Both the position numbers and the translations under genes were made by a program. DNA of 64,000 bases, taken from positions 2,528,001-2,592,000 of the forward strand of contig OY776510.1 of NCBI GenBank assembly GCA_963675665.1, read 5' to 3'. The notes beneath the pieces were generated by a model. The model was not told the DNA's origin and ran no database searches. It worked only from the letters and a program-made list of their open reading frames with translations. Below, one piece after another: positions 1 to 14,537 of this stretch (position 1 is the stretch's first letter; each line of letters starts with the position of its first letter). This DNA is from Spirochaetia bacterium (GTDB taxonomy: Bacteria; Spirochaetota; Spirochaetia; UBA9216).

Positions 1-342
1 CATGTTCTTCAGAATAAATGTCTTGGAAGAATGACCGGTATTTCATCTCTTGAAGTCAAGGCCAAACTTGATGCCGGTGAAAAACCGTTTATCCTTGATG
101 TACGCGGCCCTGATGAATATGAAGAAATGAGGCTCGGCATCGGAGAAAAGCTTATTCCGCTGGGAGCAATCAGAAAACGTCTTGATGAACTTCCCAAAGA
201 TAAAACTGAAGAAATTATAGTTTACTGTAAAATATCGCTCCGTGGGTATGAAGCGGCATGCTGTTTAGCGGGAGTCGGTTATAATAACGTAAAAGTTCTC
301 GAAGGCGGTGTAATTGCCTGGCCATTTTCCAGAGAAAAATAA
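1..342 (+). CDS. C-terminal rhodanese domain, probably of a CoA-disulfide reductase/NADH oxidase-rhodanese fusion (5' truncated by the window)
   Basis: Frame is open from base 1 (HVLQNKCLGRMTGIS...). Rhodanese motifs ILDVR..EY, IVYCKISLRG and VLEGGVIAW. Confidence 0.8.
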   Translation, partial: HVLQNKCLGRMTGISSLEVKAKLDAGEKPFILDVRGPDEYEEMRLGIGEKLIPLGAIRKRLDELPKDKTEEIIVYCKISLRGYEAACCLAGVGYNNVKVLEGGVIAWPFSREK

Positions 343-361
343 AAACTATAATATTCTTTTG

Positions 362-394
362 AAACCGTCCCGAATAGCCGGGGCGGTTTTTTTT
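362..394 (+). terminator. Rho-independent terminator
   Basis: AAACCGTCCCG-aatagc-CGGGGCGGTTT stem followed by a T run, just after the stop codon. Confidence 0.8.
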
Positions 395-467
395 GAAAGT
401 TGTAATTTAAAAATACCTGTTATCTTAAAAAACTGCTTTTTTCGGATATTACCTGCGTAAAATGAAG

Positions 468-535
468 TTGACAATATTAGTTAAAACAAATATGTTTAAC
501 ACTGCCAAGTTAATACTTGTTAACTTGGCAGTGTT
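468..535 (+). promoter_or_regulatory. Sigma70-like promoter with an overlapping perfect 16-bp inverted repeat
   Basis: TTGACA (468-473), 17 nt, TATGTT (491-496). Inverted repeat AACACTGCCAAGTTAA / TTAACTTGGCAGTGTT at 498-535. Confidence 0.55.
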
Positions 536-572
536 CTTTTGTGAAAAAAAATTGAAAAATACAGGAGAAAAT

Positions 573-999
573 ATGAGCTTCTTGCCAATTCCTTTTCACA
601 GTCTGATTGATATTACAATGAAAATACTGGATACGCGTGATCCCTACACTTTTATACATTCCTGGAGAGTTGCGGGCATGAGTGAAAAGATGGGACGGAT
701 GGGGGTATCCCGAAGGATTGTGCGGCAGAGCTATACCTCTGGGGAGCAGAATTATTTCAGTTGCAGATTCTTTTGATGCAATGACAAGTTCAAGGACATA
801 TAGAAAAGCCCGACCATATCGTGATGCGTTTAAGGAAATAAAACGCTGCAGGGGGCAACAGTTCTGTCCTGATGTTGTTGACATGTTTATTAATAATCAG
901 AATGAAATTATTGAGGTGATAGAAGCAGCGAACCTTGAAATCGAACAGCACAGAACAGATTTTGTTATTAAGAATAAGGAGATTTCCTATGCCGAATAA
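573..999 (+). pseudogene. HD-GYP c-di-GMP phosphodiesterase, internally deleted and frameshifted
   Basis: AGGAG RBS and ATG at 573 give ...RDPYTFIHSWRVAGMSEK. A different frame then continues RWDGWGYPEGL..IPLGSRIISVADSFDAMTSSRTYR..GQQFCP. The HD and HHE core between the two halves is missing. Confidence 0.8.
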
Positions 1000-1057
1000 C
1001 AAAGCAGGATGCATTGACCGGTAAAAGTCCGTAATATAAACTATCTTAAGGAAAGAA

Positions 1058-1900
1058 ATGTCTGATAAAAAGAACGCATCGGAAGTTTATATAAAATCCC
1101 TGGAGAATGCAAACAAAATTACGGAGAATGCAATTCGGTCCGCCATAGGGGCGTTAGGGCTGTTTAACGGTTGCAATGTTCTCGATGTCCCGTGCGGTAT
1201 AGGTAATCATGCCCTGTGGATGGCTCAGGATACCCCGAACAGTAATATCATAGGAGTGGATTTTTTAGAGGAACATATCGATTATGCGCGGCGGTTAAAA
1301 ATTCAAATGGTCAATCCGGTTTCAGTAGTTTTTGAAAAGGGGGATATCAACAACCTCAATTTTAAGGATGATCTCCTTGATTTTATCTGGTGCTGTGATG
1401 GTCTGTGGCCCGGGCCGGTTGAATCAGGGTGTGTGGCTGAAACCCCTTTCGATATTCTTGAATCATTAAAACGGATAGTAAAGCCCGGCGGAACAATAGC
1501 TCTTCTGTTCTGGTCCTCACAGAAGCTTCTGCCGGGATACCCTCTGATCGAAGCCGCACTTAATGCCTGTCCGTCTTCACTTCTTCCCATGACTGAAAAT
1601 CAGCCGCCTGAACTGCATTTTATGCGAGCACCATCCTGGCTTGCAAAGGCAGGGTTTGTTAATATACGCAGCAGGACTTTCTGCGCGGACATTTGCGGTC
1701 CGCTTGATAATGAATATAAGGAAGCTCTTCACAAAATCTTTGATATGCTCTGGCGGGCAGCAGAAAGGGAGGCTGCTCCCCGGGTCAGGGCAGTATATAA
1801 ATTGCTTATTGATCCGCAGTCCGATGAATATATCCTGGCGAATCCTGATTATGCCGGTTTTATAACCTACACAATGTTCACCGGTAAGCGGCCCCTGTAG
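1058..1900 (+). CDS. Class I SAM-dependent methyltransferase
   Basis: Motif I VLDVPCGIG, motif II GVDF, GDINNL, and LKRIVKPGG. Confidence 0.85.
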   Translation: MSDKKNASEVYIKSLENANKITENAIRSAIGALGLFNGCNVLDVPCGIGNHALWMAQDTPNSNIIGVDFLEEHIDYARRLKIQMVNPVSVVFEKGDINNLNFKDDLLDFIWCCDGLWPGPVESGCVAETPFDILESLKRIVKPGGTIALLFWSSQKLLPGYPLIEAALNACPSSLLPMTENQPPELHFMRAPSWLAKAGFVNIRSRTFCADICGPLDNEYKEALHKIFDMLWRAAEREAAPRVRAVYKLLIDPQSDEYILANPDYAGFITYTMFTGKRPL

Positions 1901-2027
1901 ACGTACATATCCTTAAACATTTAAACGCATTGAAGTATTGCATTGACTCCTTCGAGGACCGGTTTTGCCGTTATAAAAATAAAAAATTATTGTAAGAATA
2001 AAGATTCCAATGTAACATAGCTTTGAT

Positions 2028-3782
2028 ATGCAGATGCGCCTGGCAATACCGGATTTAAAAATCAGATACCGAATTTATTTCATGACAGTTGTTCTGGCTG
2101 TTCTGGTTTTTTTTACTGTTATAAATTTGACATATTTTTTAAGTCTGTCCAAAGCTGTGATTTGTGCAGTCCTTGCTTTGGTTGTTGTATTTGAGATTCA
2201 ATATATTGTGCGTTTCAATAAGGTTTTTCATAATCATCATTCGGCTATTATGGGTTTTATACTATTATTAATATTGATACCTGTATTAGGCGGAGACAGC
2301 AGCAGGGGCAGAATGTGGATATTTATTCTGCCCCTTGTTATTTTTTATACACAGGATTTCAAAACAAGTCTTATTTTTCTTTCGCTATCTGTTTTTCTTG
2401 CTTTGATAACGCAGATATTATCAATATTCAATCTGATTACCTCCCAGGTTCCATACACACTTGAACAGGTGATTGTTTTTTTTCTTATTGTCCTTATTGC
2501 ATGTATTTATGAAAAGACTATCCGTAATGATGAAAAAATTATTAAAAATAATCTTTATACTGATCAACTGACAAATCTTCCAAACAGGAGAAAACTCATT
2601 TATGAGCTGCAGCATCAGATAAATTCGGAAGGCGTAATTCTGGCATTAATTAATATAGATGATTTTAAAGAGATTAATGATCTGTTTGGTGCTTCTACAG
2701 GAGATAAGGTTATAAAGCATTTAAGCAAGATAATTAAAGAAGGCAAGTTTGCAAACAAGGAGCCAAGGATCTACAGACTTCATTCCGATGAATTTGCTGT
2801 TGTTTTTAAATGTGACGAAAAAAGAAACTGTGAATTATTTATACGTAATCTGATAAATGATTTATCCGAGCCGTTTTTTATGGAAAATGATGAGATTTTA
2901 ATTACAGTTTCGATTGGTGTTTCGGACTGTACTCTTTTCCCGTTAGAGCAGGCTGATATTGCTCTGAAAAAAGCAAAAGAACGAAAAGAGCATATCGTCT
3001 TTTTTGACAAATCATTTAAAACTATTGAGAAATTCGATGAGAACAGGTTGATTCTTTTAAGGTTACGAAAAGCACTGGAAACGGATAATGTGATACCGTT
3101 TTTTCAGCCTGTATTTGATATAAAAAGTAACACAATAACAAGGTATGAATCTCTTGTGAGGCTTGTTGATTCGGGAAAGATCTATTCGCCATTATCATTT
3201 CTTGAAATTTCAAAACGCTCAAAACTCTATCATAATATTACCAGGGCAATGATTAATAAAACATTCGAAGCATTTAATGAGAGTAATTATTCTTTCTCAA
3301 TAAATATTAATTATGATGATATACTTAACAGGGAAACGGAAAGTTTGCTTATTGAAAAAATTAAAAACTTCAGTTCTCCGTCAAGAATAATGCTTGAATT
3401 GCTGGAAACAGAAAAAATTGAAGATTGCCACGAAGTCCGATCATTTATCAACCGGGTAAAAGGTTTCGGCTGTAAAATAGCTGTTGACGACTTCGGTTCA
3501 GGATATTCGAATTTTAATTATATAATTTCTCTTAATGTGGATTTTATAAAAATAGACTCATCTTTGATAAAATATATTGATAGTGATTTCAATTCACAGA
3601 TAATTACAAGAAGTATCGTAAGTTTTGCCAAAGAGATGGGTATAAAAACGATTGCAGAGTATGTGCATAACGAAAGTGTATTAAAAAAAATCCGGGAACT
3701 GGATATAGATTATGCTCAGGGATATTTTATCGGAAAACCGGCCTCAGAGCTGCAAAGGCTGCCGGCGTTTGCTGAAATTTAG
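2028..3782 (+). CDS. Membrane-bound GGDEF-EAL protein, likely a c-di-GMP phosphodiesterase
   Basis: Multi-TM N-terminus. GGDEF domain (DQLTNLPNRR, INIDDFKEIND) with a degenerate active site RLHSDEF. EAL domain with YESLVR, ELLETE, DDFGSGYS, IKID, AEYV and QGY. Confidence 0.9.
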   Translation: MQMRLAIPDLKIRYRIYFMTVVLAVLVFFTVINLTYFLSLSKAVICAVLALVVVFEIQYIVRFNKVFHNHHSAIMGFILLLILIPVLGGDSSRGRMWIFILPLVIFYTQDFKTSLIFLSLSVFLALITQILSIFNLITSQVPYTLEQVIVFFLIVLIACIYEKTIRNDEKIIKNNLYTDQLTNLPNRRKLIYELQHQINSEGVILALINIDDFKEINDLFGASTGDKVIKHLSKIIKEGKFANKEPRIYRLHSDEFAVVFKCDEKRNCELFIRNLINDLSEPFFMENDEILITVSIGVSDCTLFPLEQADIALKKAKERKEHIVFFDKSFKTIEKFDENRLILLRLRKALETDNVIPFFQPVFDIKSNTITRYESLVRLVDSGKIYSPLSFLEISKRSKLYHNITRAMINKTFEAFNESNYSFSININYDDILNRETESLLIEKIKNFSSPSRIMLELLETEKIEDCHEVRSFINRVKGFGCKIAVDDFGSGYSNFNYIISLNVDFIKIDSSLIKYIDSDFNSQIITRSIVSFAKEMGIKTIAEYVHNESVLKKIRELDIDYAQGYFIGKPASELQRLPAFAEI

Positions 3783-3810
3783 GATCAGGATGAATTTGTG
3801 AGGGTTTTTT

Positions 3811-4548
3811 ATGGAAAAAGCAAAAGTTTTTTACAATGAATTAATAAACCGGTTTGAGAAAATAATTAATGAAAATGATCTTCTTGATGAGACAATTATG
3901 ATAACCGGAAAAGTCCTGACGCCGGAAGAGGCTTTGGGTAAACCCGATCGCAGGGACTTTCCCTTACTGTCCGGAAAGGAACGTCTTATGGAAGCGGATT
4001 TCAGAGGCAGCAAAGGACAGGCTTATACGGATATGCCGGGAAACTTTACCGGGGATCTTAAAAGTATTATTGAGTTTTATCCGGAAAATAATTTTCAGCG
4101 TGCTGTACTTGTTTCCAGTATAAATGCGGTATGCAGGTATCTTGGAATTGCCGATAAAACAATTCACTGCAGGGACAATGAGCCGGAATCATGCGCTGAT
4201 GAAATAACCGGGTTTATTAAAAAGGAATTCGGAGAAGTAAAAATAGCGCTTGTGGGTTGTCAGCCCAGCATGCTTGAAAAATTGTCGTCAGTATTTCAGG
4301 TGCGTAACCTTGATCTGGATGATGATAAAATAGGCACTGAAAAGTTCGGTGTAGAGATTGAACATGGAATAGAAAAACTTGATGAAGTTCTCGGCTGGTG
4401 CGACATTATTCTTGCCACCGGAAGTACAATTGTAAACAGTACGATTGTTAGGTATCTGGATCTGAAGCCCGTATTTTTTTACGGCACTACAATCAGCGGA
4501 GCAGCAGCCCTCATGGGTTACAAACGCCTTTGCTTTTGTGCGAGTTAA
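3811..4548 (+). CDS. DUF364-family Rossmann-like (putative heavy-metal chelation) protein
   Basis: Family-typical segments DFPLLSGKE, INAVCRYLG, TIHCRDNEPESC, DIILATGSTIVN and YGTT. Confidence 0.7.
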   Translation: MEKAKVFYNELINRFEKIINENDLLDETIMITGKVLTPEEALGKPDRRDFPLLSGKERLMEADFRGSKGQAYTDMPGNFTGDLKSIIEFYPENNFQRAVLVSSINAVCRYLGIADKTIHCRDNEPESCADEITGFIKKEFGEVKIALVGCQPSMLEKLSSVFQVRNLDLDDDKIGTEKFGVEIEHGIEKLDEVLGWCDIILATGSTIVNSTIVRYLDLKPVFFYGTTISGAAALMGYKRLCFCAS

Positions 4549-4578
4549 TCCGGAGTTAATCCGGGTTATAAAAATTAA

Positions 4579-4608
4579 TTGACATCTGCGAATATGATGT
4601 GATAAATT
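4579..4608 (+). promoter_or_regulatory. Sigma70 promoter of the riboswitch-led operon
   Basis: TTGACA (4579-4584), 18 nt, extended -10 TGaTAAATT (4600-4608), 12 nt before riboswitch P1. Confidence 0.65.
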
Positions 4609-4620
4609 ACAACCAATAGA

Positions 4621-4740
4621 TTCTCCGAACCGTTTTTCCTAAGGAATCTGTCTATGGAAATCCGGTCGCTGTTTCGGTCATAGCCCGAACAAAGGGAATT
4701 ACAGGAAACTGTAGTTCCTCCCGTATTTTGGAAAGGAGAA
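4621..4740 (+). ncRNA. Molybdenum cofactor (Moco/Tuco) riboswitch, P3-containing form
   Basis: P1 TTCTCC/GGAGAA. P2 carries the tetraloop receptor CCTAAG...TATGG. P3 GTTTCGG/CCGAAC. P4 GGAATTACAG-GAAA-CTGTAGTTCC. The 3' signature CCTCCCGTATTTTGGAAAGGAG closely resembles the E. coli moaA leader. Confidence 0.92.
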
Positions 4741-4859
4741 AGCACTCTACTGCTGTTTTTTTAAAACTGCGGTGTCCCTCCATACTTACGGTACTCATTC
4801 GGCTAATGCTGCTGAAACAGCACGGTCTCTCTGTTGAAATCTGAAAAAGAGGAGTAAGT

Positions 4860-6860
4860 GTGAAAAAGAGAAATTTTATCCTGTTTTTAATTATCTGTTC
4901 AGTACTGTTTTTTTCAAACGGAATTTATGCATCAGGAACACGAGAGAGTGCTGAAAATGCAGCTCAGACGGAAACCAGGATGGTTACTGATATGAGGGGG
5001 CGAAGTGTCGAAGTTCCCGTGACAATTAGCCGGGCCGCGAGCGTATTTCCCTATGTAACGTTTTTGACCCTGGCATTAGGCGGCGGTGATGTCCTTGTCG
5101 GTATTGATTCTGCGTCAGCGGGTAATGAGAACCTTATTCGGACGTACCCGGAAATGAAGGACATCCCTGCTATGGGAATGTTCTTCAATGTTAATCCGGA
5201 AAGTATTCTTGAAGCTGATCCTCAGGTGGTTTTTACCGTAAACTGGGACAAGGATCCCGATAAGACACAGGATCTTCTGAATGTTCCTGTGATATGCATC
5301 GATTTAAACCTTTACAGGGAAAGCATTGAATTCCTTTCCGGTATTTTGGGAAGCGGGGCTGAATCAAGAGGAAACGAGCTTGTATCCTGGTATGAAGATA
5401 AAAAAGATTTTATAGCCGAAAGTATAAATAAAGCAGACGTGAAGGAACCTGCAAAGGTTTATATTGTAGGCGGTAAAGGAATCCACTCCACCTTCGGAAA
5501 GGAATCCACCTGGCAATATGAAATAGAAGATGCAGGCGGAGTAAATGTTGCGGCTGATGTTGCCGGCGGCGGTGCGCAGGAAGTATCAGCCGAGCAGATT
5601 ATAATCTGGAAGCCGGATGTAATTATCCTTGATTCCGCGTGTCCTGATTCAGCGGAAGATCTTCTGAATAATGATACATTCCGGGACGTCCCTGCTGTAA
5701 AGACCAAAAGAATATACCGGGCCCCCGTCGGATTTCTTGATACTTTCGGGCGTCCGCATATGGAATCGGCATTAGCCCGTTTATGGCTTGCTGACAAGCT
5801 TTATCCTGATGAGATTAATATTGATATTGTTGATGAAGCAAAAAAGTTTTATTCAAAATTTTATGGCGCCAAACTGTCGGATTCTGAAATAGATGCCATT
5901 TTAAATCCTGTAAAACAGTCTGATGAGCCTTCCAATATTACAGTTACGGATTCTATTGGAAATAAAGTCCTTATTCCTGCCGGAGATAAAAAAGTGGCAT
6001 CGCTCAGATCCGGAATCACCGAAATAATATGTGCATTAGGCGCTGTGGACTCAATAATTGCCGTGGATGAAATGACCAAAGATGGTTATATGTACGGAGA
6101 GTTCATTTCGTTGGCATATCCTCAACTGATGGAGCAGACAGCACCCTATTCGGGGCGAGATGTTAATATTGAAGAACTGTTAAGCATAGAGCCGGATCTG
6201 GTTCTTCACGGCGGTTTCGGACGTATAAGACAGGCTGATTCAATCAAAAATCAGGCGCCTGAGCTTCCGGTTGTGATAGCGCACTTTGAGACCATGGATG
6301 CCTATATGGATGATATCAGAATTGTCGGTAAATGCGTCAATGCTGAAGATCGTGCCGAAGTTTTAATAACCTATCTGCAGCAGAAGCTCGATATGATAAA
6401 GGAATTAACAAAAAAAATTCCTGAAGACAGGAAGAAGAGTGTTTTTTATGGCGGTCATGATGTCTATCATGCTTACGGCGGAAATACATTTGAACATTTT
6501 CAGATTGTAAATGCCGGCGGGGTAAACCCGGCCGAATCCCTCACAGGATGGATGCCTGAAGTATCTCCGGAGCAGCTTCTTAACTGGAATCCCGATGTGA
6601 TTATATTGCTTAACGGGGCTGATGTTGAGGCCGTTATGAACGACGACAGGATAGAAAGTATATCCGCAATCAGAAACGGAAATGTATATGCTCTTCCGCA
6701 GGCCGGATGGGATTTTTCAACGCCGCGCGCGCTTTTTTGCATTGAATGGATATTCTCAAAGCTTTATCCGGAAGAATATTCATCTTTTGATATTAACAAA
6801 CAGGCCGACGACTTTTTTATGCAGGTTTTTAATGTTTCTTATGAAGGACCCGAACTTTAA
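4860..6860 (+). CDS. ABC transporter substrate-binding protein with two tandem FecB/BtuF-type (class III) domains
   Basis: GAGGAG RBS and GTG start. Signal peptide ending IYA-SGTRE. Two repeats beginning VTDMRGRSVEVP and VTDSIGNKVLIP, each with N.E.ll..PD, AGGVN and VS.EQ...W.PDVI. Confidence 0.9.
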   Translation: MKKRNFILFLIICSVLFFSNGIYASGTRESAENAAQTETRMVTDMRGRSVEVPVTISRAASVFPYVTFLTLALGGGDVLVGIDSASAGNENLIRTYPEMKDIPAMGMFFNVNPESILEADPQVVFTVNWDKDPDKTQDLLNVPVICIDLNLYRESIEFLSGILGSGAESRGNELVSWYEDKKDFIAESINKADVKEPAKVYIVGGKGIHSTFGKESTWQYEIEDAGGVNVAADVAGGGAQEVSAEQIIIWKPDVIILDSACPDSAEDLLNNDTFRDVPAVKTKRIYRAPVGFLDTFGRPHMESALARLWLADKLYPDEINIDIVDEAKKFYSKFYGAKLSDSEIDAILNPVKQSDEPSNITVTDSIGNKVLIPAGDKKVASLRSGITEIICALGAVDSIIAVDEMTKDGYMYGEFISLAYPQLMEQTAPYSGRDVNIEELLSIEPDLVLHGGFGRIRQADSIKNQAPELPVVIAHFETMDAYMDDIRIVGKCVNAEDRAEVLITYLQQKLDMIKELTKKIPEDRKKSVFYGGHDVYHAYGGNTFEHFQIVNAGGVNPAESLTGWMPEVSPEQLLNWNPDVIILLNGADVEAVMNDDRIESISAIRNGNVYALPQAGWDFSTPRALFCIEWIFSKLYPEEYSSFDINKQADDFFMQVFNVSYEGPEL

Positions 6861-6865
6861 AACTG

Positions 6866-7894
6866 ATGCATAATGAGCAGAAATCTGATCGGCTGTTCAG
6901 TCTTGCAGCATTCTTTTTTGGTTTGCTGTTTGTAATTCTTTTTATTGTATCTCTGTTTTCAGGCAGATATTCCATTTCGCCCGGGTTGATGTGCCGTGTG
7001 TTGCTTTCTAAGATAATACCTCTCGATATAACATGGTCACGGACTGTGGAGACTGTAGTCTTCAATATCAGGCTTCCGAGAACCGTACTTGCCTGTCTTA
7101 TAGGAGGAAGCCTCGCTGTCTGCGGGGCTTCTTTTCAGGGCATGTTCCAGAACCCGCTGGTTAGCCCTGACATTCTCGGCGTAACATCAGGCGCAGGCTT
7201 CGGCGCAGCTTTGGCAATCCTTCTGTGGAACAAGGTCGCGCTTATACAGGCCTCGGCCTTCACGTTCGGAATACTTGCCGTTGTTGTTGCTTACCTGATC
7301 AGCCGCGTCTTTAAAACAACGCCCACACTGATGCTTGTGCTTTCCGGTATTATTGTAGGCTCTATTTTTTCAGCTCTTTTATCATTGATTAAATATGTTG
7401 CAGATCCCAACCAGAAACTGCCGGCTATAGTTTTCTGGCTGATGGGAAGTCTTGCGGGTGTTTCCAGAAAAGAACTTGTAACCGTTGCGATACCAATCCT
7501 GATTGGAACAGCCGGACTGTTCCTTGTAAGGTGGCGGATAAACATACTGTCGATGGGAGACGAGGAAGCACATTCGATGGGGATCAGAACCGGCACGCTC
7601 AAGCTGTTCATCATTATCTGCGCTACATTAACAACGGCATCCTCCGTAAGCGCCTGCGGCATAATAGGCTGGGTAGGCCTGGTTGTGCCGCATATCTGCC
7701 GGATGATTATCGGTTCGGACCATAAGCGACTTATACCGCTTTCTTTTCTGGGCGGAGGCTGTTTTCTGCTCGGCGTTGATACCATTGCAAGAACCGCCAT
7801 TTCAGCTGAAATCCCGCTGGGAATCCTGACCGCACTTATCGGGGCCCCTTTCTTTGCATTCCTGCTCAGAAAAACAGGAGGCAAACCGGGATGA
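6866..7894 (+). CDS. FecCD/BtuC-family ABC permease
   Basis: IRLPR, FQNPLVSPDILGVTSGA, FWLMGS, GDEEAHSMG, GWVGLVVPH and EIPLGILTALIGAPFF. Confidence 0.95.
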   Translation: MHNEQKSDRLFSLAAFFFGLLFVILFIVSLFSGRYSISPGLMCRVLLSKIIPLDITWSRTVETVVFNIRLPRTVLACLIGGSLAVCGASFQGMFQNPLVSPDILGVTSGAGFGAALAILLWNKVALIQASAFTFGILAVVVAYLISRVFKTTPTLMLVLSGIIVGSIFSALLSLIKYVADPNQKLPAIVFWLMGSLAGVSRKELVTVAIPILIGTAGLFLVRWRINILSMGDEEAHSMGIRTGTLKLFIIICATLTTASSVSACGIIGWVGLVVPHICRMIIGSDHKRLIPLSFLGGGCFLLGVDTIARTAISAEIPLGILTALIGAPFFAFLLRKTGGKPG

Positions 7895-8736
7895 ATGAAA
7901 CAGCCGTTGAATTATTTGAAGCATCATTTTCTTACGGGACCGAACCTGTTTTTTCGAATATCTCCGGAAAGATTAATCGCGGAGAGATCGTGTGTCTTCT
8001 GGGCGCAAACGGCTGTGGAAAGACAACCCTGATGAAATGTATGAACGGGCTTCTGCAGTTCGAAAGCGGAAAGGCTTTTATTCTGGGGAAAGATTTATTT
8101 TCAATGAGCGAGAGAGAACTTGCGATGAAAACAGCTTTTGTTTTCCAGGGTTATTCTCAGGTTTTTTCATATTCCGTTACCGACATTGTTCTTACCGGAA
8201 GGGGGCCCCATCTCGGCTTTTTCTCTTTTCCAGGACAAAAAGACAAACAAAAAGTTTTTTCAATTATGAAGGAAATGCATATAAGCCATCTGGCTTCACG
8301 ATATTTTCCCACCCTGAGCGGAGGAGAGCAGCAGCTTACAATGATCGCCCGGGCCCTGGCGCAGGAACCTTATGTGCTTTTTCTTGATGAGCCGGCTACA
8401 GCTCTGGATTTCGGAAATCAGCAGTACCTGTTAAGGACTGTAAAGAACCTGGCCAGGGTATACGGAATAACGATAGTAATGTCGACCCATTACCCGGACC
8501 ATGCATTGGCCGTTGCAGACAGTATCTGGGCAATAAAGGACGGCCGGATTATCAGTTCGGGACCTCCGCTTGAAGTCCTCACTGAGGAAAATATTTATAA
8601 ACTTTATAATGTGCCGGCCAGAGTGATTGAAGTGAGAGAAGAAGGAATTAATTCTCATACTGTAGTCCCCCTGGATAACAAAGCCGGCGATGAAGTAAAT
8701 TTTATTCTTGCGAACAAAGGTAAAGATAATGAGTGA
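7891..8736 (+). CDS. ABC ATP-binding protein (FepC/BtuD type)
   Basis: Walker A GANGCGKT, signature LSGGEQQ, Walker B FLDEP, STH switch. ATGA overlap with the permease. Confidence 0.95.
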   Translation: MNETAVELFEASFSYGTEPVFSNISGKINRGEIVCLLGANGCGKTTLMKCMNGLLQFESGKAFILGKDLFSMSERELAMKTAFVFQGYSQVFSYSVTDIVLTGRGPHLGFFSFPGQKDKQKVFSIMKEMHISHLASRYFPTLSGGEQQLTMIARALAQEPYVLFLDEPATALDFGNQQYLLRTVKNLARVYGITIVMSTHYPDHALAVADSIWAIKDGRIISSGPPLEVLTEENIYKLYNVPARVIEVREEGINSHTVVPLDNKAGDEVNFILANKGKDNE

Positions 8737-10960
8737 TGTAAGGTGTAATTATTGTGAGAAGAGATGTATTTTAACTGATAAGGATTTCGGATATTGCAGG
8801 ATGTACAAGATGGAAGAAGGAAAGGTCGTCGAACGATTCCCGTTTCGTTTTTCAAGCATAGGAGATTCTTATGTAGATGGCATCCCTTTCTATCACGTAT
8901 TACCCGGAAGCAGGACCCTTGTTGTCGGCAGTTCCGGATGCAATATTGATTGCGCGTATTGCTCCAATTCCTATGTCGCGAGGGCCGATGTTGAAAAGAC
9001 ATTGCGCCTTAAATGTTCTGCTGAAGAAATAATCCGTATGGCTAAAAACGCTGAATGCAAATCAATAACCTTTCCGATTAATGAACCTGTTGTTGCTTTG
9101 CCTACTGTTCTCGGGATTGCCGAAGAAGCTTCGAAGTCAGGGCTCCCGACAGGGATTCTTACAAACGGACTTATGACTGAATCTTCTGCGGAAGCCCTGG
9201 CGCGGTCCGTAGACTTTATCAATGTAAGTATAAAGGCCGTTAACAAGGACAGTATATCGGCCCTGCTCGGCTGGTATGATCTGGAAGTTCTTGCCCGTAA
9301 TATTTCGTTGTTTAACAGGAACGCGCATGTTGAGGTCAGTACCCCGATAGTGCAGGGGATAAATGATTCGGATATACCGGCAATAGCCGGCCTTATCTCA
9401 AGTATTGACCGAAGTATTCCCTGGCATGTATTTCGTCTGCTTCCGGAGTATCGTATGGCCGAAATGGAACGTCCCAACATCCGCAAGGTAGCCAATGCGA
9501 TTGAAAATGAAAAGGAAAATCTTGATTTTATCTATTTCAGCAATTTCCTCGGATCAGTATGGGTCGATACCCTTTGCCCCGAATGCGGGAAAAAGGTTAT
9601 AGAAAGGATTAACTACGGCGGCTGCAATGCCAAATGCGTTAAGATTGAACTGGATTCGGACAGGTGTCCTGTTTGCGGCAGGAAGATCCCTGTATTTAAC
9701 AACATGTCAATTTCGGAAGAATATGATTCAGCTTTCAATATGCAGAAATCTTCCCCGGTAATGTATGACGATACAGATAAAGATATTGCTGTTATTGATG
9801 TTGTCGACTGGCAGGCTGATGTGGAGATGAGGACCGGAAATATTGTCGATATTGAAGATATTGTTAACGGGAACGGCGCGGACAGGGCTAAAAGGATTAT
9901 ATCCGAAGTTAAATCTCATCTTAAAGAAAATCAGTATCCCGGAGATTTAAACGGTTCTGCCTGTGAATGGATAACTGACAACGCACTGGCTATAAATAGA
10001 ATATATAAGCCCGAATTCATGTTTCTTAATTATTGCGATATATTTTTTAATAAAGTTTTTTCTTCAGGCGACAGTTTTACCGAAAAAAAGATTCGTAACA
10101 AAGTTTTTAATGAAGTGAACCGGTTTATTGAAAACACCGACTTTGAACCGGTAATAGCAGGGTTGGGCAATCTTATTGATATTTCCGGAGAAATAAGTAC
10201 GACCGGAACAGACGCCCATATAGAAGCTTTTGGAATGTACTGTCAGTATGCGGGACTGTTTTCTCCGTCAAACGAGGCTCTGAAACGGATAGAACCCATA
10301 CCTGGTATACGGAAAATAGTATCAAGAGAGATGTTGCGGAATTCCGGCGATGTCGCTCCGGATTTTCTTAAAAGAAGTCCTGATTATATCCTGTGTGCAA
10401 AAGAAGGATACTATTTCAGGGGACACGGAACCGCCGCCAGACCTTTTTATAAACTTCCTTCACAGGATGCAAGTATTCCTGTTTCGGGGATTAAAAGCGG
10501 CAGAGTAAAGAATATTACTGATATAGCTTCGTATATTCTTGATTCACTGGGGAAAAAGAAGACAGCGCTGATTTTTATTGAGGGCATCGGCAGGGAAGAG
10601 TTTCCGTACGATTCAATTGATATCGGATCCTCGCAGGATTGGTTCTATTATCCGCATAATAATGAAATGTACCTGTCAATACTCACGGGAGAACCCTTTA
10701 CCGCCAGGCCTTATCCTCCGGCATATCAGGCATATAAATATGACGGTTATGATTCGCCTTTTCCATATTCGGCATACTATGAGTATATTGAACCGGGTTC
10801 AATAGGAAGAAGATTCAAGGGCCGCAGCGTGTCCGTTGGCGGGAGAAGCGTCCTGACGCATGTTTCAGCCGGAACGGACATTACAATAGAATGCTTTGCC
10901 CGGGCGCTTTACAATCATGGAACAATTGCCGTAATGAACACGGAAAAGCTTGGTAATTAA
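8729..10960 (+). CDS. Radical SAM protein (AmmeMemoRadiSam/PflA-like N-terminal part) fused to an uncharacterised domain of about 400 aa
   Basis: CNIDCAYC cluster motif, N-terminal CxxCxxxC...C, PFYHVLPGS, INEP, and a CPECG...CPVCG zinc ribbon closing the SAM part. The start overlaps the ATPase stop. Confidence 0.85.
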   Translation: MSDVRCNYCEKRCILTDKDFGYCRMYKMEEGKVVERFPFRFSSIGDSYVDGIPFYHVLPGSRTLVVGSSGCNIDCAYCSNSYVARADVEKTLRLKCSAEEIIRMAKNAECKSITFPINEPVVALPTVLGIAEEASKSGLPTGILTNGLMTESSAEALARSVDFINVSIKAVNKDSISALLGWYDLEVLARNISLFNRNAHVEVSTPIVQGINDSDIPAIAGLISSIDRSIPWHVFRLLPEYRMAEMERPNIRKVANAIENEKENLDFIYFSNFLGSVWVDTLCPECGKKVIERINYGGCNAKCVKIELDSDRCPVCGRKIPVFNNMSISEEYDSAFNMQKSSPVMYDDTDKDIAVIDVVDWQADVEMRTGNIVDIEDIVNGNGADRAKRIISEVKSHLKENQYPGDLNGSACEWITDNALAINRIYKPEFMFLNYCDIFFNKVFSSGDSFTEKKIRNKVFNEVNRFIENTDFEPVIAGLGNLIDISGEISTTGTDAHIEAFGMYCQYAGLFSPSNEALKRIEPIPGIRKIVSREMLRNSGDVAPDFLKRSPDYILCAKEGYYFRGHGTAARPFYKLPSQDASIPVSGIKSGRVKNITDIASYILDSLGKKKTALIFIEGIGREEFPYDSIDIGSSQDWFYYPHNNEMYLSILTGEPFTARPYPPAYQAYKYDGYDSPFPYSAYYEYIEPGSIGRRFKGRSVSVGGRSVLTHVSAGTDITIECFARALYNHGTIAVMNTEKLGN

Positions 10961-10989
10961 ATCAGGACAGGATATTCAATTTGCCATGT

Positions 10990-12096
10990 TTACCAGAGCG
11001 GGGTAAGCCTGCGGGCAAAGACATTGCGGGCCGGTTTCATATCAAGATCGCTGAAAAACAGGCCCGAATCCTTATGGTATGACGCGTCCGACTCGACCAG
11101 CTTGAAGTAATAGGCTTCTGTAACAGGAAGAGCTTCTATGGCGTCTATATAATATTCCATCCGGTCGGCCTGGTAGTCCGGAGAAGTAAGCTCAAATTCC
11201 GAATTCGGGCCCCCGAATTCCGAAACCAGCACAGATTTTTCATCCGGCAGAACGGAAAGATATTCAGGCCAGTTTTCAGGATCATCATACAAATGGATGT
11301 CTATAATATCATATCCGGCGTTCTGAAAAACATACTCTACATTCTGCTTTATCCCGTTGCTGTCGTAATCTTCTTTAATCTTATCGATTCGACTGTTGAG
11401 ATATTCTACAGTAATGCCGTTATCGAGGGTGATACCGGAAAAATCAGGGTAGGCGCCCTTTGCGGCAAAGTATTCAACAATCGGATAGGTTCTGGTAAGT
11501 CCTCCAAGAACAACTTCAGTATTCGGTGATAATGTCTGAACGGCATTATAAAGTATATTATTATAGGCTACGAATCTTTCTATGGAACTCTGATCCATGT
11601 AAACCGTTCCGTCCTGTGTGCCTGATTCCCACTCGTTTCCAAACTGGATTTTATTGATATTGTTGTACCGGGATAATAATGCTTCGATAAAGGTTTGAAG
11701 CGCCTCTTCGTTCAGAAGACAGGCGCCGTCGCTTCCGGGCGTGAGGGTTGCCCAGTCCGGACCGATGCTTGATATGGTCAGAAAAACCGATATATTGTTT
11801 TCTTCGGCCGCATTCATGCGGACATCCATGGGGTCCCAGTAAAAGTTTCCCTGCTCAGGTTCCCTGTTTCTCCAGTCTACGGCTATTCGTATTCTGTCGA
11901 TTGCCAGTTTCTTTATCTCATCAACGGTAAAGTTAATCTGTTCAAGGCTGGAAAAAGGCGGGAACGACATTCCCGCTATTATACCTGTTGCTCCGTAAAC
12001 GGAATAATTGCCTTCCAGTATTAATTCCGATTCACAGCAGGAATAAAGATGTAAAGTAATTATAAGTAAAAATATTACCCGAAACAGCCTGTTCAT
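10990..12096 (-). CDS. Clan GH-A glycoside hydrolase, probable lipoprotein
   Basis: Lipobox-like LYSC, W...EPEQG.F.W, acid/base QFGNEW, DIHLY, nucleophile VSEFG. Confidence 0.7.
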   Translation of the reverse strand: MNRLFRVIFLLIITLHLYSCCESELILEGNYSVYGATGIIAGMSFPPFSSLEQINFTVDEIKKLAIDRIRIAVDWRNREPEQGNFYWDPMDVRMNAAEENNISVFLTISSIGPDWATLTPGSDGACLLNEEALQTFIEALLSRYNNINKIQFGNEWESGTQDGTVYMDQSSIERFVAYNNILYNAVQTLSPNTEVVLGGLTRTYPIVEYFAAKGAYPDFSGITLDNGITVEYLNSRIDKIKEDYDSNGIKQNVEYVFQNAGYDIIDIHLYDDPENWPEYLSVLPDEKSVLVSEFGGPNSEFELTSPDYQADRMEYYIDAIEALPVTEAYYFKLVESDASYHKDSGLFFSDLDMKPARNVFARRLTPLW

Positions 12097-12290
12097 AATA
12101 TATAAAAGTACTATGTTGCTGATCAGATTTCAATCCTGGTCGGGAAATCTTTGTTTGTTGCTTTTCAGTAAGTATTCAATCTTAATCATCCGGCTGTTGA
12201 CTTTTTCAGTCAATTCAAAATTAATGGTTAAAAGCATAACACAGTACCTAATTGCTTCATTTCGTAAGTTTTAAAGGACTGGGGAGACAG

Positions 12291-13769
12291 ATGGCGAAAA
12301 CATTAATGATTCAGGGCACTTCCTCAAATGTCGGAAAGAGTTTTCTGACCGCGGCGCTCTGCCGGATTTTTTATCGGAAAGGTATAAATGTTGTCCCTTT
12401 TAAAGCGCAGAATATGGCGCTGAACTCGTTTGTTACCCCGGAAGGCGATGAAATAGGCCGCGCCCAGGCAGTACAGGCCCAGGCTGCGGGTCTTGCTCCT
12501 CATGTGGATATGAACCCTGTGCTTCTGAAGCCTGAAGCAGATGCAAAAAGCCAGGTTGTGCTTATGGGAAAGCCGTGGAAAAGCCTTCCTGCCGGAGAAT
12601 ACTATAAAGAGCGGTTTGAATTATGGAAGGCTGTTACACAATCGCTTGAGCGGCTTGATAAAAAGTACGACCTGATAATTATTGAAGGAGCGGGAAGCCC
12701 TGCGGAAATAAATCTTAAAAGATTCGAAATTGTGAATATGCGGGTTGCCCGGCATTTGCAGTCTCCGGTCCTTCTTGCCGGAGATATTGATCGCGGCGGT
12801 ATTTTTGCCCAGCTGTACGGTACCCTGGAGCTTCTTGAACCTGAAGAACGGGAACTTATAAAAGGTTTTATAATTAACAAATTCCGGGGTGATGTTAAAT
12901 TGCTTGAACCGGGAATTGATATGCTGACGGAATTGACAGGCGGTGTCCCGACTTTGGGAGTAGTTCCATATATCCGCGATATTTTTCTCGCCCAGGAAGA
13001 TTCGGTTTCCCTCGATGAACAGACGGAATATGAATCGGAAAACATCGCTGCGAATGAGGCTCTGGACATTGTCGTAGTGCGTTTGCCTCACATCTCAAAT
13101 TATGATGATTTTGATCCGCTGCAGCATGAAGACGGAGTAAATATCAGGTTTGTCGATTCTGTAAAAAAAATCGGCCGGCCCGATGCGATAATTATTCCGG
13201 GCAGTAAAACTACGATTGCAGATCTGAACTGGCTTAAAAACAACGGTCTGGCTGATATCATTACAGGATTTTCTAAAGCGGGAATCCCTGTCTGCGGAAT
13301 ATGCGGCGGCTACCAGATGCTTGGAAAATCCATAAACGATTTAAAAGGCATTGAGGGGAGGCCGGGCAGGTTTGACGGAATAGGGTTGCTGCCTGTTGAA
13401 ACGGTATTTGATCACGGCAAAGAAACAGTTGCGGGTACAGCAGAAGTCTGCTCAGACGGAAGTGAAGTCCGCGGGTATGAAATTCATATGGGCAGGACAA
13501 GCCTTTACCCTGATGCTGTGCCTCTGCTGAATAAAAAGGACGGCAGTTTTGACGGCTGTGTATTGGGAAGTGTGTGGGGAACATATTTTCACGGTATTTT
13601 TGATAATGACGAATTCAGAAGAACTTGGCTTGGAAAGATCGGATGGAATGGGTCAAACAATGTCGCTTCTTTCTTCAGCAGGCGCGAAGAAGAGCTGGAA
13701 TGTCTTGCAGACCAGTTTGAACAGGCCCTCGATATGGAGGCAATAGCCGGAATTATCGACGGGAAATAG
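12291..13769 (+). CDS. cobQ: Cobyric acid synthase
   Basis: MIQGTSSNVGKS, PFKAQNMALNS, IGRAQ, EGAGSPAEINL, DIDRGG, INKFRGD, GICGGYQMLG, GYEIHMG, GTYFHG. GGGGAG RBS. Confidence 0.96.
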   Translation: MAKTLMIQGTSSNVGKSFLTAALCRIFYRKGINVVPFKAQNMALNSFVTPEGDEIGRAQAVQAQAAGLAPHVDMNPVLLKPEADAKSQVVLMGKPWKSLPAGEYYKERFELWKAVTQSLERLDKKYDLIIIEGAGSPAEINLKRFEIVNMRVARHLQSPVLLAGDIDRGGIFAQLYGTLELLEPEERELIKGFIINKFRGDVKLLEPGIDMLTELTGGVPTLGVVPYIRDIFLAQEDSVSLDEQTEYESENIAANEALDIVVVRLPHISNYDDFDPLQHEDGVNIRFVDSVKKIGRPDAIIIPGSKTTIADLNWLKNNGLADIITGFSKAGIPVCGICGGYQMLGKSINDLKGIEGRPGRFDGIGLLPVETVFDHGKETVAGTAEVCSDGSEVRGYEIHMGRTSLYPDAVPLLNKKDGSFDGCVLGSVWGTYFHGIFDNDEFRRTWLGKIGWNGSNNVASFFSRREEELECLADQFEQALDMEAIAGIIDGK

Positions 13770-13772
13770 TCT

Positions 13773-14537
13773 CTACGCGATAATAACCTTTATCCCGGCA
13801 GCTTCAAAATCCGCTTTCTGCCGGTCAGTTATGCCGCCGTCTGTGATCAGGCAATCTATCCTGTCCATCGCACGAAGGGCTGCAAACGCAGGCCGGTTTA
13901 TCTTTGTTGAATCGACAAGCAGAAACACCTCGTCGGCCGAATCAATCATGGCCTGCTTAACCGGCAGGTCGCTGAAGCCGGGATAAGTCAGCCCGGTATC
14001 AAGTGATACCCCCGCCGCCGCGAGAAACAGCTGGTGAACATGCATATTCTGAAAAAAGACGGCCGCTTTATCGCCGGTCAGCGAAAGCGTCGGCGCCTTA
14101 AACTCGCCCCCCGTCATATGTACTTCCATCCCGGGGTTTGCCCCGAGAATCAACGCGATGTTGAGGCTGTTGGTAATAACCCTGAGTTGTTTGACTCCGG
14201 CAAGGCTGCGGGCCAGTTCGGTTACGGTGGTCCCTGAATCGAGTATGATGGAAGTATTCTCCTTTACAAAGCCGGCGGCCCTTTCGCCTATCTGTTTTTT
14301 GAGATCCATGTTTTCGGTATGTTCCAGGGACAGAGATTTAACCCTGTCGGATATGTTTTTAAGAAATGCGCCCCCGTGGTCTCTTGCAATCTCGCCGGCG
14401 GATTCAATTTTTACAAGATCCTGCCGTATCGTGGGTTCGGAAACATTAAAAAGATTGCTCAGATAGGTTACCCTTGCGCTTCCGTTTTCTCTTATAAGCT
14501 CAATAATCTTTTCGCGGCGCTGTTCAGCCAGCATCAA
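13773..14537 (-). CDS. DeoR/GlpR-family transcriptional regulator
   Basis: HTH VSEPTIRQDL, RDHGGA, ILDSGTT, ITNSL and DSTK. Confidence 0.93.
   Translation of the reverse strand: MMLAEQRREKIIELIRENGSARVTYLSNLFNVSEPTIRQDLVKIESAGEIARDHGGAFLKNISDRVKSLSLEHTENMDLKKQIGERAAGFVKENTSIILDSGTTVTELARSLAGVKQLRVITNSLNIALILGANPGMEVHMTGGEFKAPTLSLTGDKAAVFFQNMHVHQLFLAAAGVSLDTGLTYPGFSDLPVKQAMIDSADEVFLLVDSTKINRPAFAALRAMDRIDCLITDGGITDRQKADFEAAGIKVIIA

Follow-up and report, generated by a model that had tools for sequence, protein, structure and literature searches.

A radical SAM enzyme and a partner of predicted permuted phosphatase-type fold encoded with molybdenum/tungsten-linked uptake genes in anaerobic bacteria

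The fusion gene, its operon and the two-gene module

We analysed a 64,000-nucleotide stretch of the genome of a Spirochaetia bacterium (GenBank assembly GCA_963675665.1, contig OY776510.1, positions 2,528,001 to 2,592,000; hereafter the window, to which all coordinates without a prefix refer), with a focus on an open reading frame at 8729-10960 on the plus strand. This frame encodes 743 amino acids (aa) without an internal stop, and joins a radical S-adenosylmethionine (SAM) domain (aa 1-325; 8729-9703) to a C-terminal domain that we call X, whose first part covers aa 350-608 (9776-10552) and whose last part covers aa 606-738 (10544-10942). The frame closes a plus-strand operon in which the genes overlap or abut, in the order substrate-binding protein with two Peripla_BP_2 units (4860-6860; PF01497 in two stretches), FecCD/BtuC-type permease (6866-7894; PF01032, 302 bits), ATP-binding cassette (ABC) ATPase (7891-8736) and fusion; the 3' end of the ATPase gene shares 8 nucleotides (nt) with the start of the fusion. 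The operon is headed by an aptamer of the molybdenum/tungsten cofactor (Moco/Wco) riboswitch family RF01055 at 4611-4754 on the same strand (76.5 bits against a gathering threshold of 36, E 2.1e-17), a feature absent from the initial annotation of this DNA. A convergent gene follows the fusion at 10990-12096.

The initial annotation had described a C-terminal extension of ~400 aa, and domain X, at ~390-400 aa, is indeed present. The three motifs quoted there also lie in the order given, with WITDNAL..YKPEFMFLNY at aa 414-435, RSPDYILCAKEGYYF at aa 549-563 and KKTALIFIEGIG at aa 610-621. Four more proteins are full-length fusions (724-745 aa), with 77, 41, 38 and 30% identity to the window fusion; for the closest of them the source gives the label Spirochaetales. 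The genome of the window itself holds a second fused copy, at C1:3877802-3880045. These findings indicate that the fusion is natural and rule out a frameshift or an assembly artefact as its origin. Further fused proteins appeared in a wide profile search, so that the fusion occurs in several lineages. Neither the radical SAM nor the X proteins carry a recognizable signal peptide, and both begin at their conserved cores in the alignments.

To describe the genomic setting of X, we used the best 80 of 108 GTDB stretches that encode an X relative, and all counts out of 80 below refer to this set. In 78 of the 80 loci X is directly preceded by a radical SAM gene, separate in 77 and fused in one, as judged with a radical SAM profile built from these neighbours themselves. 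Of the two remaining loci, one has its radical SAM gene close by but on the opposite strand, and the other is on a contig that begins 215 nt before X. The fused arrangement on which the initial annotation centred thus recurs but is the exception, two adjacent genes being the usual form; the fusion is a rare form of a two-component radical SAM-X module. Four stand-alone X proteins measured 375-379 aa. A profile search of 1.84 billion representatives returned 135 clusters at E <= 0.001 and 71 at 1e-30, and the X homologues found in other searches were named 'hypothetical protein'. Hosts include Geobacteraceae, Syntrophomonadaceae, Syntrophorhabdaceae, Sporomusa, Desulfotignum and Anaerolineae, with Sporomusa ovata, Sporomusa rhizae and Desulfuromonas sp. 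among the cultured ones. The module is rare and unevenly spread: two of the 151 genomes searched from the window's class had X, as did 9 of 301 genomes of the phylum of genome G001. Two loci (L034 and L196) have two X genes in one operon.

Elsewhere in the window, a DUF364 gene at 3811-4548 lies directly 5' of the riboswitch, and DUF364 genes neighbour the module in 13 of the 80 loci. An HD-GYP-like gene at 462-999 is apparently split across two frames.

The radical SAM domain and the predicted fold of domain X

The radical SAM domain matched PF04055 with 52.9 bits (cut-off 29.5), and over residues 3-322 its best NCBIfam family was TIGR04337, the AmmeMemoRadiSam radical SAM family (E 1.3e-39), with 136 bits against a cut-off of 220. 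Its length equals that of AmrS, and it shares with AmrS an N-terminal four-Cys set (C6/C9/C13/C23), the CxxxCxxC motif (C71, C75 and C78; 8939-8962, plus strand), which was invariant in 73 of 73 aligned sequences, a C-terminal four-Cys set (C283/C286/C313/C316), and the H..PG and EP motifs. However, the X-linked radical SAM proteins lack the DPxEKKP motif, which all 31 AmrS rows retain in full. A quick maximum-likelihood tree (65 rows) set these AmrS rows apart from 32 X-linked rows and two rows fused to a binding-protein lobe, on a branch with 99% support in the Shimodaira-Hasegawa-like approximate likelihood ratio test (SH-aLRT), whereas the X-linked group by itself had just 66%. The score below cut-off, the missing motif and the separate branch rule out membership of the AmmeMemoRadiSam family. 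The layout recognized in the initial annotation therefore stands as to the three Cys sets and the best-matching family, but on sequence grounds the radical SAM partner of X is a separate sister group of AmrS, outside that family. All 30 host genomes tested (for 30 of the 80 loci) also carry a TIGR04337 gene above cut-off, together with further matches below cut-off at 115-181 bits.

Unlike in the AmrS system, the partner of the radical SAM enzyme here is X, and not AMMECR1 or Memo. The absence of AMMECR1 and Memo genes nearby, pointed out in the initial annotation, was confirmed, as each has one copy in the genome, at 2.90 Mb and 3.12 Mb, which is 0.3-0.6 Mb away from the window at 2.53-2.59 Mb; no AMMECR1/Memo cluster was found among the recurring neighbours scanned at the module loci. 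The genome's AmrS-like gene (G000:C1:3370054-3371010) is a separate one at 3.37 Mb, a few genes from the glycine cleavage genes T, H and P (labels read from sequence). As for other radical SAM families, the tungsten cofactor radical SAM maturase TIGR04317 scored 34.1 bits against a cut-off of 380, and no HemN-family match appeared among 25 of 31 NCBIfam rows or among 14 hits in the PDB. The nearest solved radical SAM structures were MoaA and PFL activase.

A third form was also observed, in which a radical SAM domain of the same type is fused to a Peripla_BP_2-like lobe in a protein of ~590 aa (G000:C1:555309-557081 and L053:5200-6975). It adjoins a methyltransferase gene and a riboswitch-headed FecCD operon with another short radical-SAM-like gene, and open frames of 590-660 aa in this score range recur in several of the 30 genomes. 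The presence of a Peripla_BP_2-like lobe in place of X suggests that the added domain captures an imported ligand.

Domain X matched no Pfam or NCBIfam family. Profile searches against the PDB gave 0 hits and then a best E of 0.65, and hhalign comparisons of both parts of X with eight PF01663 proteins gave probabilities <1%, no better than the radical SAM controls. An AlphaFold2 model of X based on 110 sequences had a predicted local distance difference test score (pLDDT) of 95.4 and a predicted template modelling score (pTM) of 0.94. With this model, Foldseek placed phosphonoacetate hydrolase (E 4.6e-4, TM 0.30, ~213 columns) and then nucleotide pyrophosphatase/phosphodiesterase (NPP) enzymes in its top rows, with only one match at E <= 0.001. 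In a wide structure search, eight members of the alkaline-phosphatase superfamily ranked first (Z 9.2-6.8) and unrelated helicases came next at 5.7; model residues 6-264 aligned with residues 135-407 of phosphonoacetate hydrolase (1ei6) at Z 9.2, with an rmsd (root-mean-square deviation) of 3.9 and 225 residues aligned. Language-model features likewise pointed to PF01663 (0.92), with 149 of 256 shared, below the 170 typical of members.

If X is circularly permuted, as proposed in the initial annotation, its last third should match the N-terminal third of the superfamily that is missing from the alignment above. We modelled X residues 262-399 alone (pLDDT 70). Foldseek returned nothing at E <= 0.001 for this fragment. 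In a wide search of 48,161 chains, 28 rows reached Z >= 2, and 23 of them were superfamily members (phosphatases, sulfatases or phosphoglycerate mutase) whose alignment starts in their N-terminal part; on 1ei6 the fragment covered residues 13-158 (Z 2.7, rmsd 3.7, 97 aligned). Each score was weak (Z 2.0-3.2, the best being 3.2), and the support for permutation comes from the agreement of the matches in family and range. Taken together, these data support the view that X has a predicted circularly permuted alkaline-phosphatase-superfamily fold of the NPP/PhnA branch with a cap domain; both the superfamily and the permutation were thus borne out, by structure searches and not at the sequence level. 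The predicted fold with its cap domain resembles that of PhnA/NPP (PF01663) proteins, whereas the chain order is permuted and there is no sequence-level match.

We next compared the active sites, placing positions in X by motif against PF01663 proteins (reference motifs LGIDG, T/S..YMTG, D..H, SDHG and a late H) rather than by residue-level superposition. The position of the first metal-ligand Asp is occupied in X by Glu (E618; 98% of 110 sequences), and that of the nucleophile by Gly in 70% and Ser in 15%, with Asn in the window protein. X has GxG where SDHG stands in PF01663, and neither the D..H pair nor the late His is kept. By this motif comparison the canonical metal ligands and the nucleophile are gone, which agrees with the degenerate phosphoesterase site suspected in the initial annotation and indicates that X is likely not a classical phosphoesterase. 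Of the 'phosphoester-handling domain' proposed there, the fold remains and the catalytic residues do not, which makes a role of X in ligand binding or as a structural partner likelier than one in cleaving phosphoesters. Across the 110 sequences, D357, W361, Q362, YPGD 403-406 and W414 are conserved at about 80-99%, as is a C-terminal set comprising H711, D717, E721, C722, R725 and G731. The H/D/E/C/R residues near the C-terminus are a new conserved set that distinguishes X from PhnA/NPP proteins. A divergent set of nine X relatives retains P-Y-P-G-D, W, E, D, E-C and R.

Several unusual relatives of X were also found. P0075, P0081 and P0131 are very divergent; two of these three, of ~450 aa, have insertions and EPWxR replacing ECFxR, and one is fused to a radical-SAM-like domain without CxxxCxxC. 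In L057:9995-12085 (696 aa), the C-terminus of X is fused to a TrmO-like beta-barrel and an FmdE-like domain, a TrmO-FmdE protein that is encoded as a separate neighbour gene in 13 of the 80 loci.

Probable molybdenum/tungsten control and gene neighbourhood

The riboswitch of the window contains the P3 stem. A sigma-70-like promoter match (TTGACA, 18 nt, TG-TAAATT; 4579-4608, plus strand) ends 3 nt before it, and is notable for nothing but its position, since 18 such matches were found against 16.5 expected. The leader 4611-4875 folds with a z of -3.9, and P3 can alternatively pair with a stretch 40-60 nt before the start codon. According to the accessible text of PMC2408646, RF01055 RNAs with P3 go with molybdenum (Mo) and those without P3 with tungsten (W), the Regulski rule, by which the window's aptamer is Moco-type. 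As read by eye, P3 is present in the window and in its close relative L001, and absent from the other 15 RNAs and from the genome's second radical SAM-X copy, which has its own riboswitch directly upstream at 3877638-3877757. The whole genome (5.15 Mb) has 11 RF01055 RNAs, five of which head FecCD operons (there are seven FecCD genes in the genome). Tup-like and ModA/WtpA-like oxyanion transporters, so labelled from their sequences, stand under riboswitches of their own, suggesting that the FecCD systems probably carry something else. In the same genome, two Moco/Wco riboswitches (G000:C1:3452594-3452715 and 2461539-2461671) precede what resembles a purine operon (purB, guaB, purA, guaA) and what resembles an aldehyde dehydrogenase gene (labelled in the same way), both unusual as targets of such an RNA.

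The loci were scanned with a covariance model built from 27 other hits, whose results matched those of Rfam at the 14 loci where both were applied. A riboswitch of the RF01055 type was found in 18 of the 80 loci, as compared with 11 such RNAs in the whole 5.15 Mb of the window's genome. In 16 of these loci it is no more than 400 nt away from the gene that opens the run, and in three of the 16 it sits directly before the radical SAM gene. Stand-alone units made up of riboswitch and radical SAM-X occur in L021, L023 and L024, and among seven further loci beyond the 80 two have a riboswitch. L034 has two riboswitches in tandem.

In place of a riboswitch, many deltaproteobacterial loci carry ModE-like boxes of the form CGNTAT-N12-ATANCG, which the E. 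coli ModE consensus printed in PMC545781 fits, as far as that source could be consulted. Allowing one mismatch at most, 13 of the 57 operon heads have the box, where shuffles gave 0.7 and random windows 1.5; perfect boxes occur in 16 of the 80 loci against 1.05 in shuffles. Three other ModE-type patterns were found in only 0-1 of the 57 operon heads. The module thus appears to be under Mo/W control by two unrelated mechanisms, the riboswitch and the ModE-like box. In L006, L008, L011, L031, L054, L063 and L076, which are loci of Geobacteraceae type, the ModE-like box overlaps a second conserved palindrome, CTTGACAT-N11-13-ATGTCAAG. The Sporomusa-type heads of L058, L059, L065, L067, L068 and L072 are without riboswitch or ModE-like box; in the region ~7500-7850, 5' of the binding-protein gene, they have runs of AAACA(T/A) repeats and a downstream half site like TTTATGTT.

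With respect to transport, a FecCD permease is present in 60 of the 80 loci, a Peripla_BP_2 protein in 54 and a TonB-dependent receptor in 16. For the binding protein of the window, the best match with a named ligand-binding role was HI_1472 (MolA; E 6.4e-24, third overall), which outranked all named iron, heme and B12 binders. MOT1, ModABC, WtpA-like, ModD, MoeA or AOR genes occur in 17 of the 80 loci (a ModD-like gene in five, AOR in three). Counting a riboswitch, a ModE-like box or a Mo/W gene as a mark, 41 of the 80 loci are marked. The two features on which the initial annotation had staked its proposal, a phosphatase-like core and an association with Mo/W, were both found; as to the latter, regulation and transport (riboswitch, ModE-like boxes, MOT1, ModABC, MoeA) provide the link, whereas neighbouring Mo/W enzymes are seldom seen.

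Other neighbours include methyltransferases of four groups (15, 12, 3 and 3 loci), FmdE (20 loci), a deaminase (6), a MATE exporter (2), phosphatases (5 and 4) and weak matches to molybdopterin-binding domains (6 and 2). A divergent gut clade, two of the seven loci beyond the 80, combines FecCD importers with an XdhC-like gene, and in one case with moaE/moaA-like genes (labels assigned likewise). A corrinoid role, hinted at by BtuC-like hits and by cobQ at 12252-13769 in the window, was set aside, as a scan against all of Rfam found no cobalamin riboswitch in window positions 1-14000 or in 21 loci. Whole-genome searches covered the hosts of 50 loci out of the 80, chosen for their longer contigs. 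moaC was present in all 50 and the AOR family in 45, whereas moaC occurs in 62 of the 151 genomes from the window's class, the one class that served as control; this contrast favours the Mo/W reading.

Proposed function and alternative explanations

By analogy with radical SAM enzymes of heme uptake systems, we tentatively favour a role for radical SAM-X as a cytoplasmic enzyme that would break or remodel an imported Mo/W complex so that the metal or the cofactor becomes reusable. The presumed switching by Mo/W, the importers for bulky chelates and the absence of the module from most pterin makers point to an accessory function in acquisition, not to core cofactor synthesis. As judged from the riboswitch class, a low level of Mo/W cofactor would turn the operon on. 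Import would then run through the BtuCD-type system, joined in some hosts by a TonB-dependent receptor, and bring in not the free oxyanion but Mo/W held in an organic or sulfur ligand, for which a pterin cofactor or one of its breakdown products is the most likely candidate. X, having lost the phosphatase metal site, is predicted to hold the ligand or its phosphate end beside the radical SAM site, where a 5'-deoxyadenosyl radical could cleave or rearrange the ligand without oxygen, as ChuW does with heme. Our guess for the leading substrate candidate is a pterin cofactor or a breakdown product of one, because of the NPP-type fold and the phosphatase, molybdopterin-binding-domain-like and XdhC-like neighbours; the pterin dinucleotide suggested in the initial annotation is plausible. 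The context and the fold of radical SAM-X are well supported, whereas the proposed chemistry is conjectural.

Several observations weigh against this assignment. No riboswitch, perfect ModE-like box or Mo/W gene was found in 39 of the 80 loci, some of which are short; the unmarked loci also include long ones from Sporomusa relatives and Syntrophorhabdaceae. The ModE-like hits come mostly from related Geobacteraceae, and the pattern was first spotted in these same loci. Neither FecCD nor a binding protein lies within the locus stretch in 19 of the 80 loci, and in seven (L012, L014, L015, L020, L021, L023 and L050) the nearest transporter is MOT1 or ModABC, which handle the free oxyanion; such loci would suit a function independent of chelate import. 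MolA itself binds plain molybdate, according to the part of PMC4245157 that was available. All 50 hosts tested carry moaC, that is, they make their own pterin, which also rules out cofactor salvage forced by auxotrophy.

Metallophore systems have their biosynthesis and uptake genes clustered and metal-repressed, and the pair could on that model make a small Mo/W chelator, perhaps from a nucleotide, that is exported and retaken via the receptor and importer after decoration by the methyltransferase, FmdE, TrmO-like and deaminase gene products. Such tailoring genes and a MATE exporter are indeed among the neighbours, X is fused to TrmO-FmdE in L057, and MoaA and PFL activase as nearest radical SAM structures, together with the nucleotide-pyrophosphatase-type fold of X, would suit such a synthesis. 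We nevertheless regard this as unlikely, given that the tailoring genes are patchy and missing from the window operon, that the exporter is confined to two loci, and that the sister enzyme fused to a binding-protein lobe speaks for an incoming ligand. A further possibility, close to the idea of the initial annotation, is that the substrate of the pair is the pterin cofactor made by the cell itself, which the pair would tailor or repair by removal or exchange of a nucleotide tail or by modification of tungstopterin, and that the pair is merely co-regulated with the importers. This would fit the NPP/phosphonoacetate-hydrolase fold, the MoeA, MoeA-PBP, XdhC-like, moaE/moaA-like and AOR neighbours of some loci and the stand-alone riboswitch-radical SAM-X units, and the invariant H711, D717, E721, C722 and R725 could form a new site. 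However, X has not retained the nucleophile and metal ligands that phosphoester cleavage requires, the TIGR04317 score is far below its cut-off (34 vs 380), and moaC occurs in 62 of the 151 single-class control genomes as against two for X; a module so rare among pterin makers cannot be a general maturation step. Own-cofactor tailoring is therefore, in our judgement, rather improbable.

It is also conceivable, though we give it little credence, that the importer carries a chelate of iron, or of another metal that is neither Mo nor W, for Fe-S-rich Mo/W enzymes, and that the pair frees that metal. FecCD/Peripla_BP_2 families are mostly iron or corrinoid importers, and the FecCD operons under Tuco riboswitches in Eubacterium limosum are read as iron transporters in the sections of PMC11725836 that we could access, a point that counts against Mo/W cargo as well; ModE-controlled 'Fe ABC transporters' are similarly listed in the available part of PMC12327845. 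On the other hand, in these portions of the two papers the transporter labels rest on annotation, and one riboswitch-FecCD operon rises on W limitation (PMC11725836). MolA stands above all named iron, heme and B12 binders as a match to the window's binding protein, and the pair also follows MOT1 and ModABC.

Returning to the recovery of imported Mo/W complexes, a more specific version can be formulated, which we consider somewhat unlikely as a whole. By a hitherto undescribed pathway, strict anaerobes would take up Mo/W pterin cofactor, intact or damaged, or some other Mo/W complex coming from neighbouring cells, and would recover it by radical chemistry, with the permuted and repurposed phosphatase fold as the ligand-binding subunit, and the genome of the window would hold a Mo-tuned copy (with P3) and a W-tuned copy (without P3).

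A functional parallel is found in ChuW, HutW and HmuW. As described in the consulted parts of PMC10114669 and PMC10404700, a radical SAM enzyme is there encoded with a metal-repressed uptake system, and an oxygen-free release of metal from an imported chelate is proposed; ChuW and HutW sit in Fur-controlled heme uptake loci (PMC10114669). The likeness is one of analogy only, since those enzymes are HemN-like class C methyltransferases that act on heme under Fur control, whereas radical SAM-X has Mo/W control and an obligate partner domain. MolABC of Haemophilus influenzae and 'fetABC' of Eubacterium limosum, under a Tuco riboswitch, are likewise type II BtuCD-like importers tied to molybdate/tungstate or to RF01055, but the portions of the literature available to us describe no radical SAM-X pair with them. 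The supplement of PMC2408646, in the part that was accessible, lists riboswitch-headed FecCD/TroA_e operons, including one Syntrophomonas wolfei entry in which a sulfite-oxidase-family gene is followed by a terminal radical SAM gene that may belong to this family. The pair is not mentioned in the accessible portions of PMC3766115, PMC7266159, PMC2700814 and PMC11484787, and we found no description of it in the open literature; subscription journals and supplements could hold one. What is novel is an unnamed two-component radical SAM system that would serve a metal uptake operon, radical SAM enzymes in such operons being already known.

X stands for a protein family that has no name and in which the alkaline-phosphatase fold is predicted to be circularly permuted; its radical SAM partner represents a second, better-contextualised branch of AmmeMemoRadiSam-type enzymes. 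The module is a nameable and testable enzyme pair with an importer under two independent Mo/W regulators, and it occurs in cultured species. It bears on how anaerobes of digesters, sediments and guts get Mo and W when free oxyanions are scarce or sulfur-bound.

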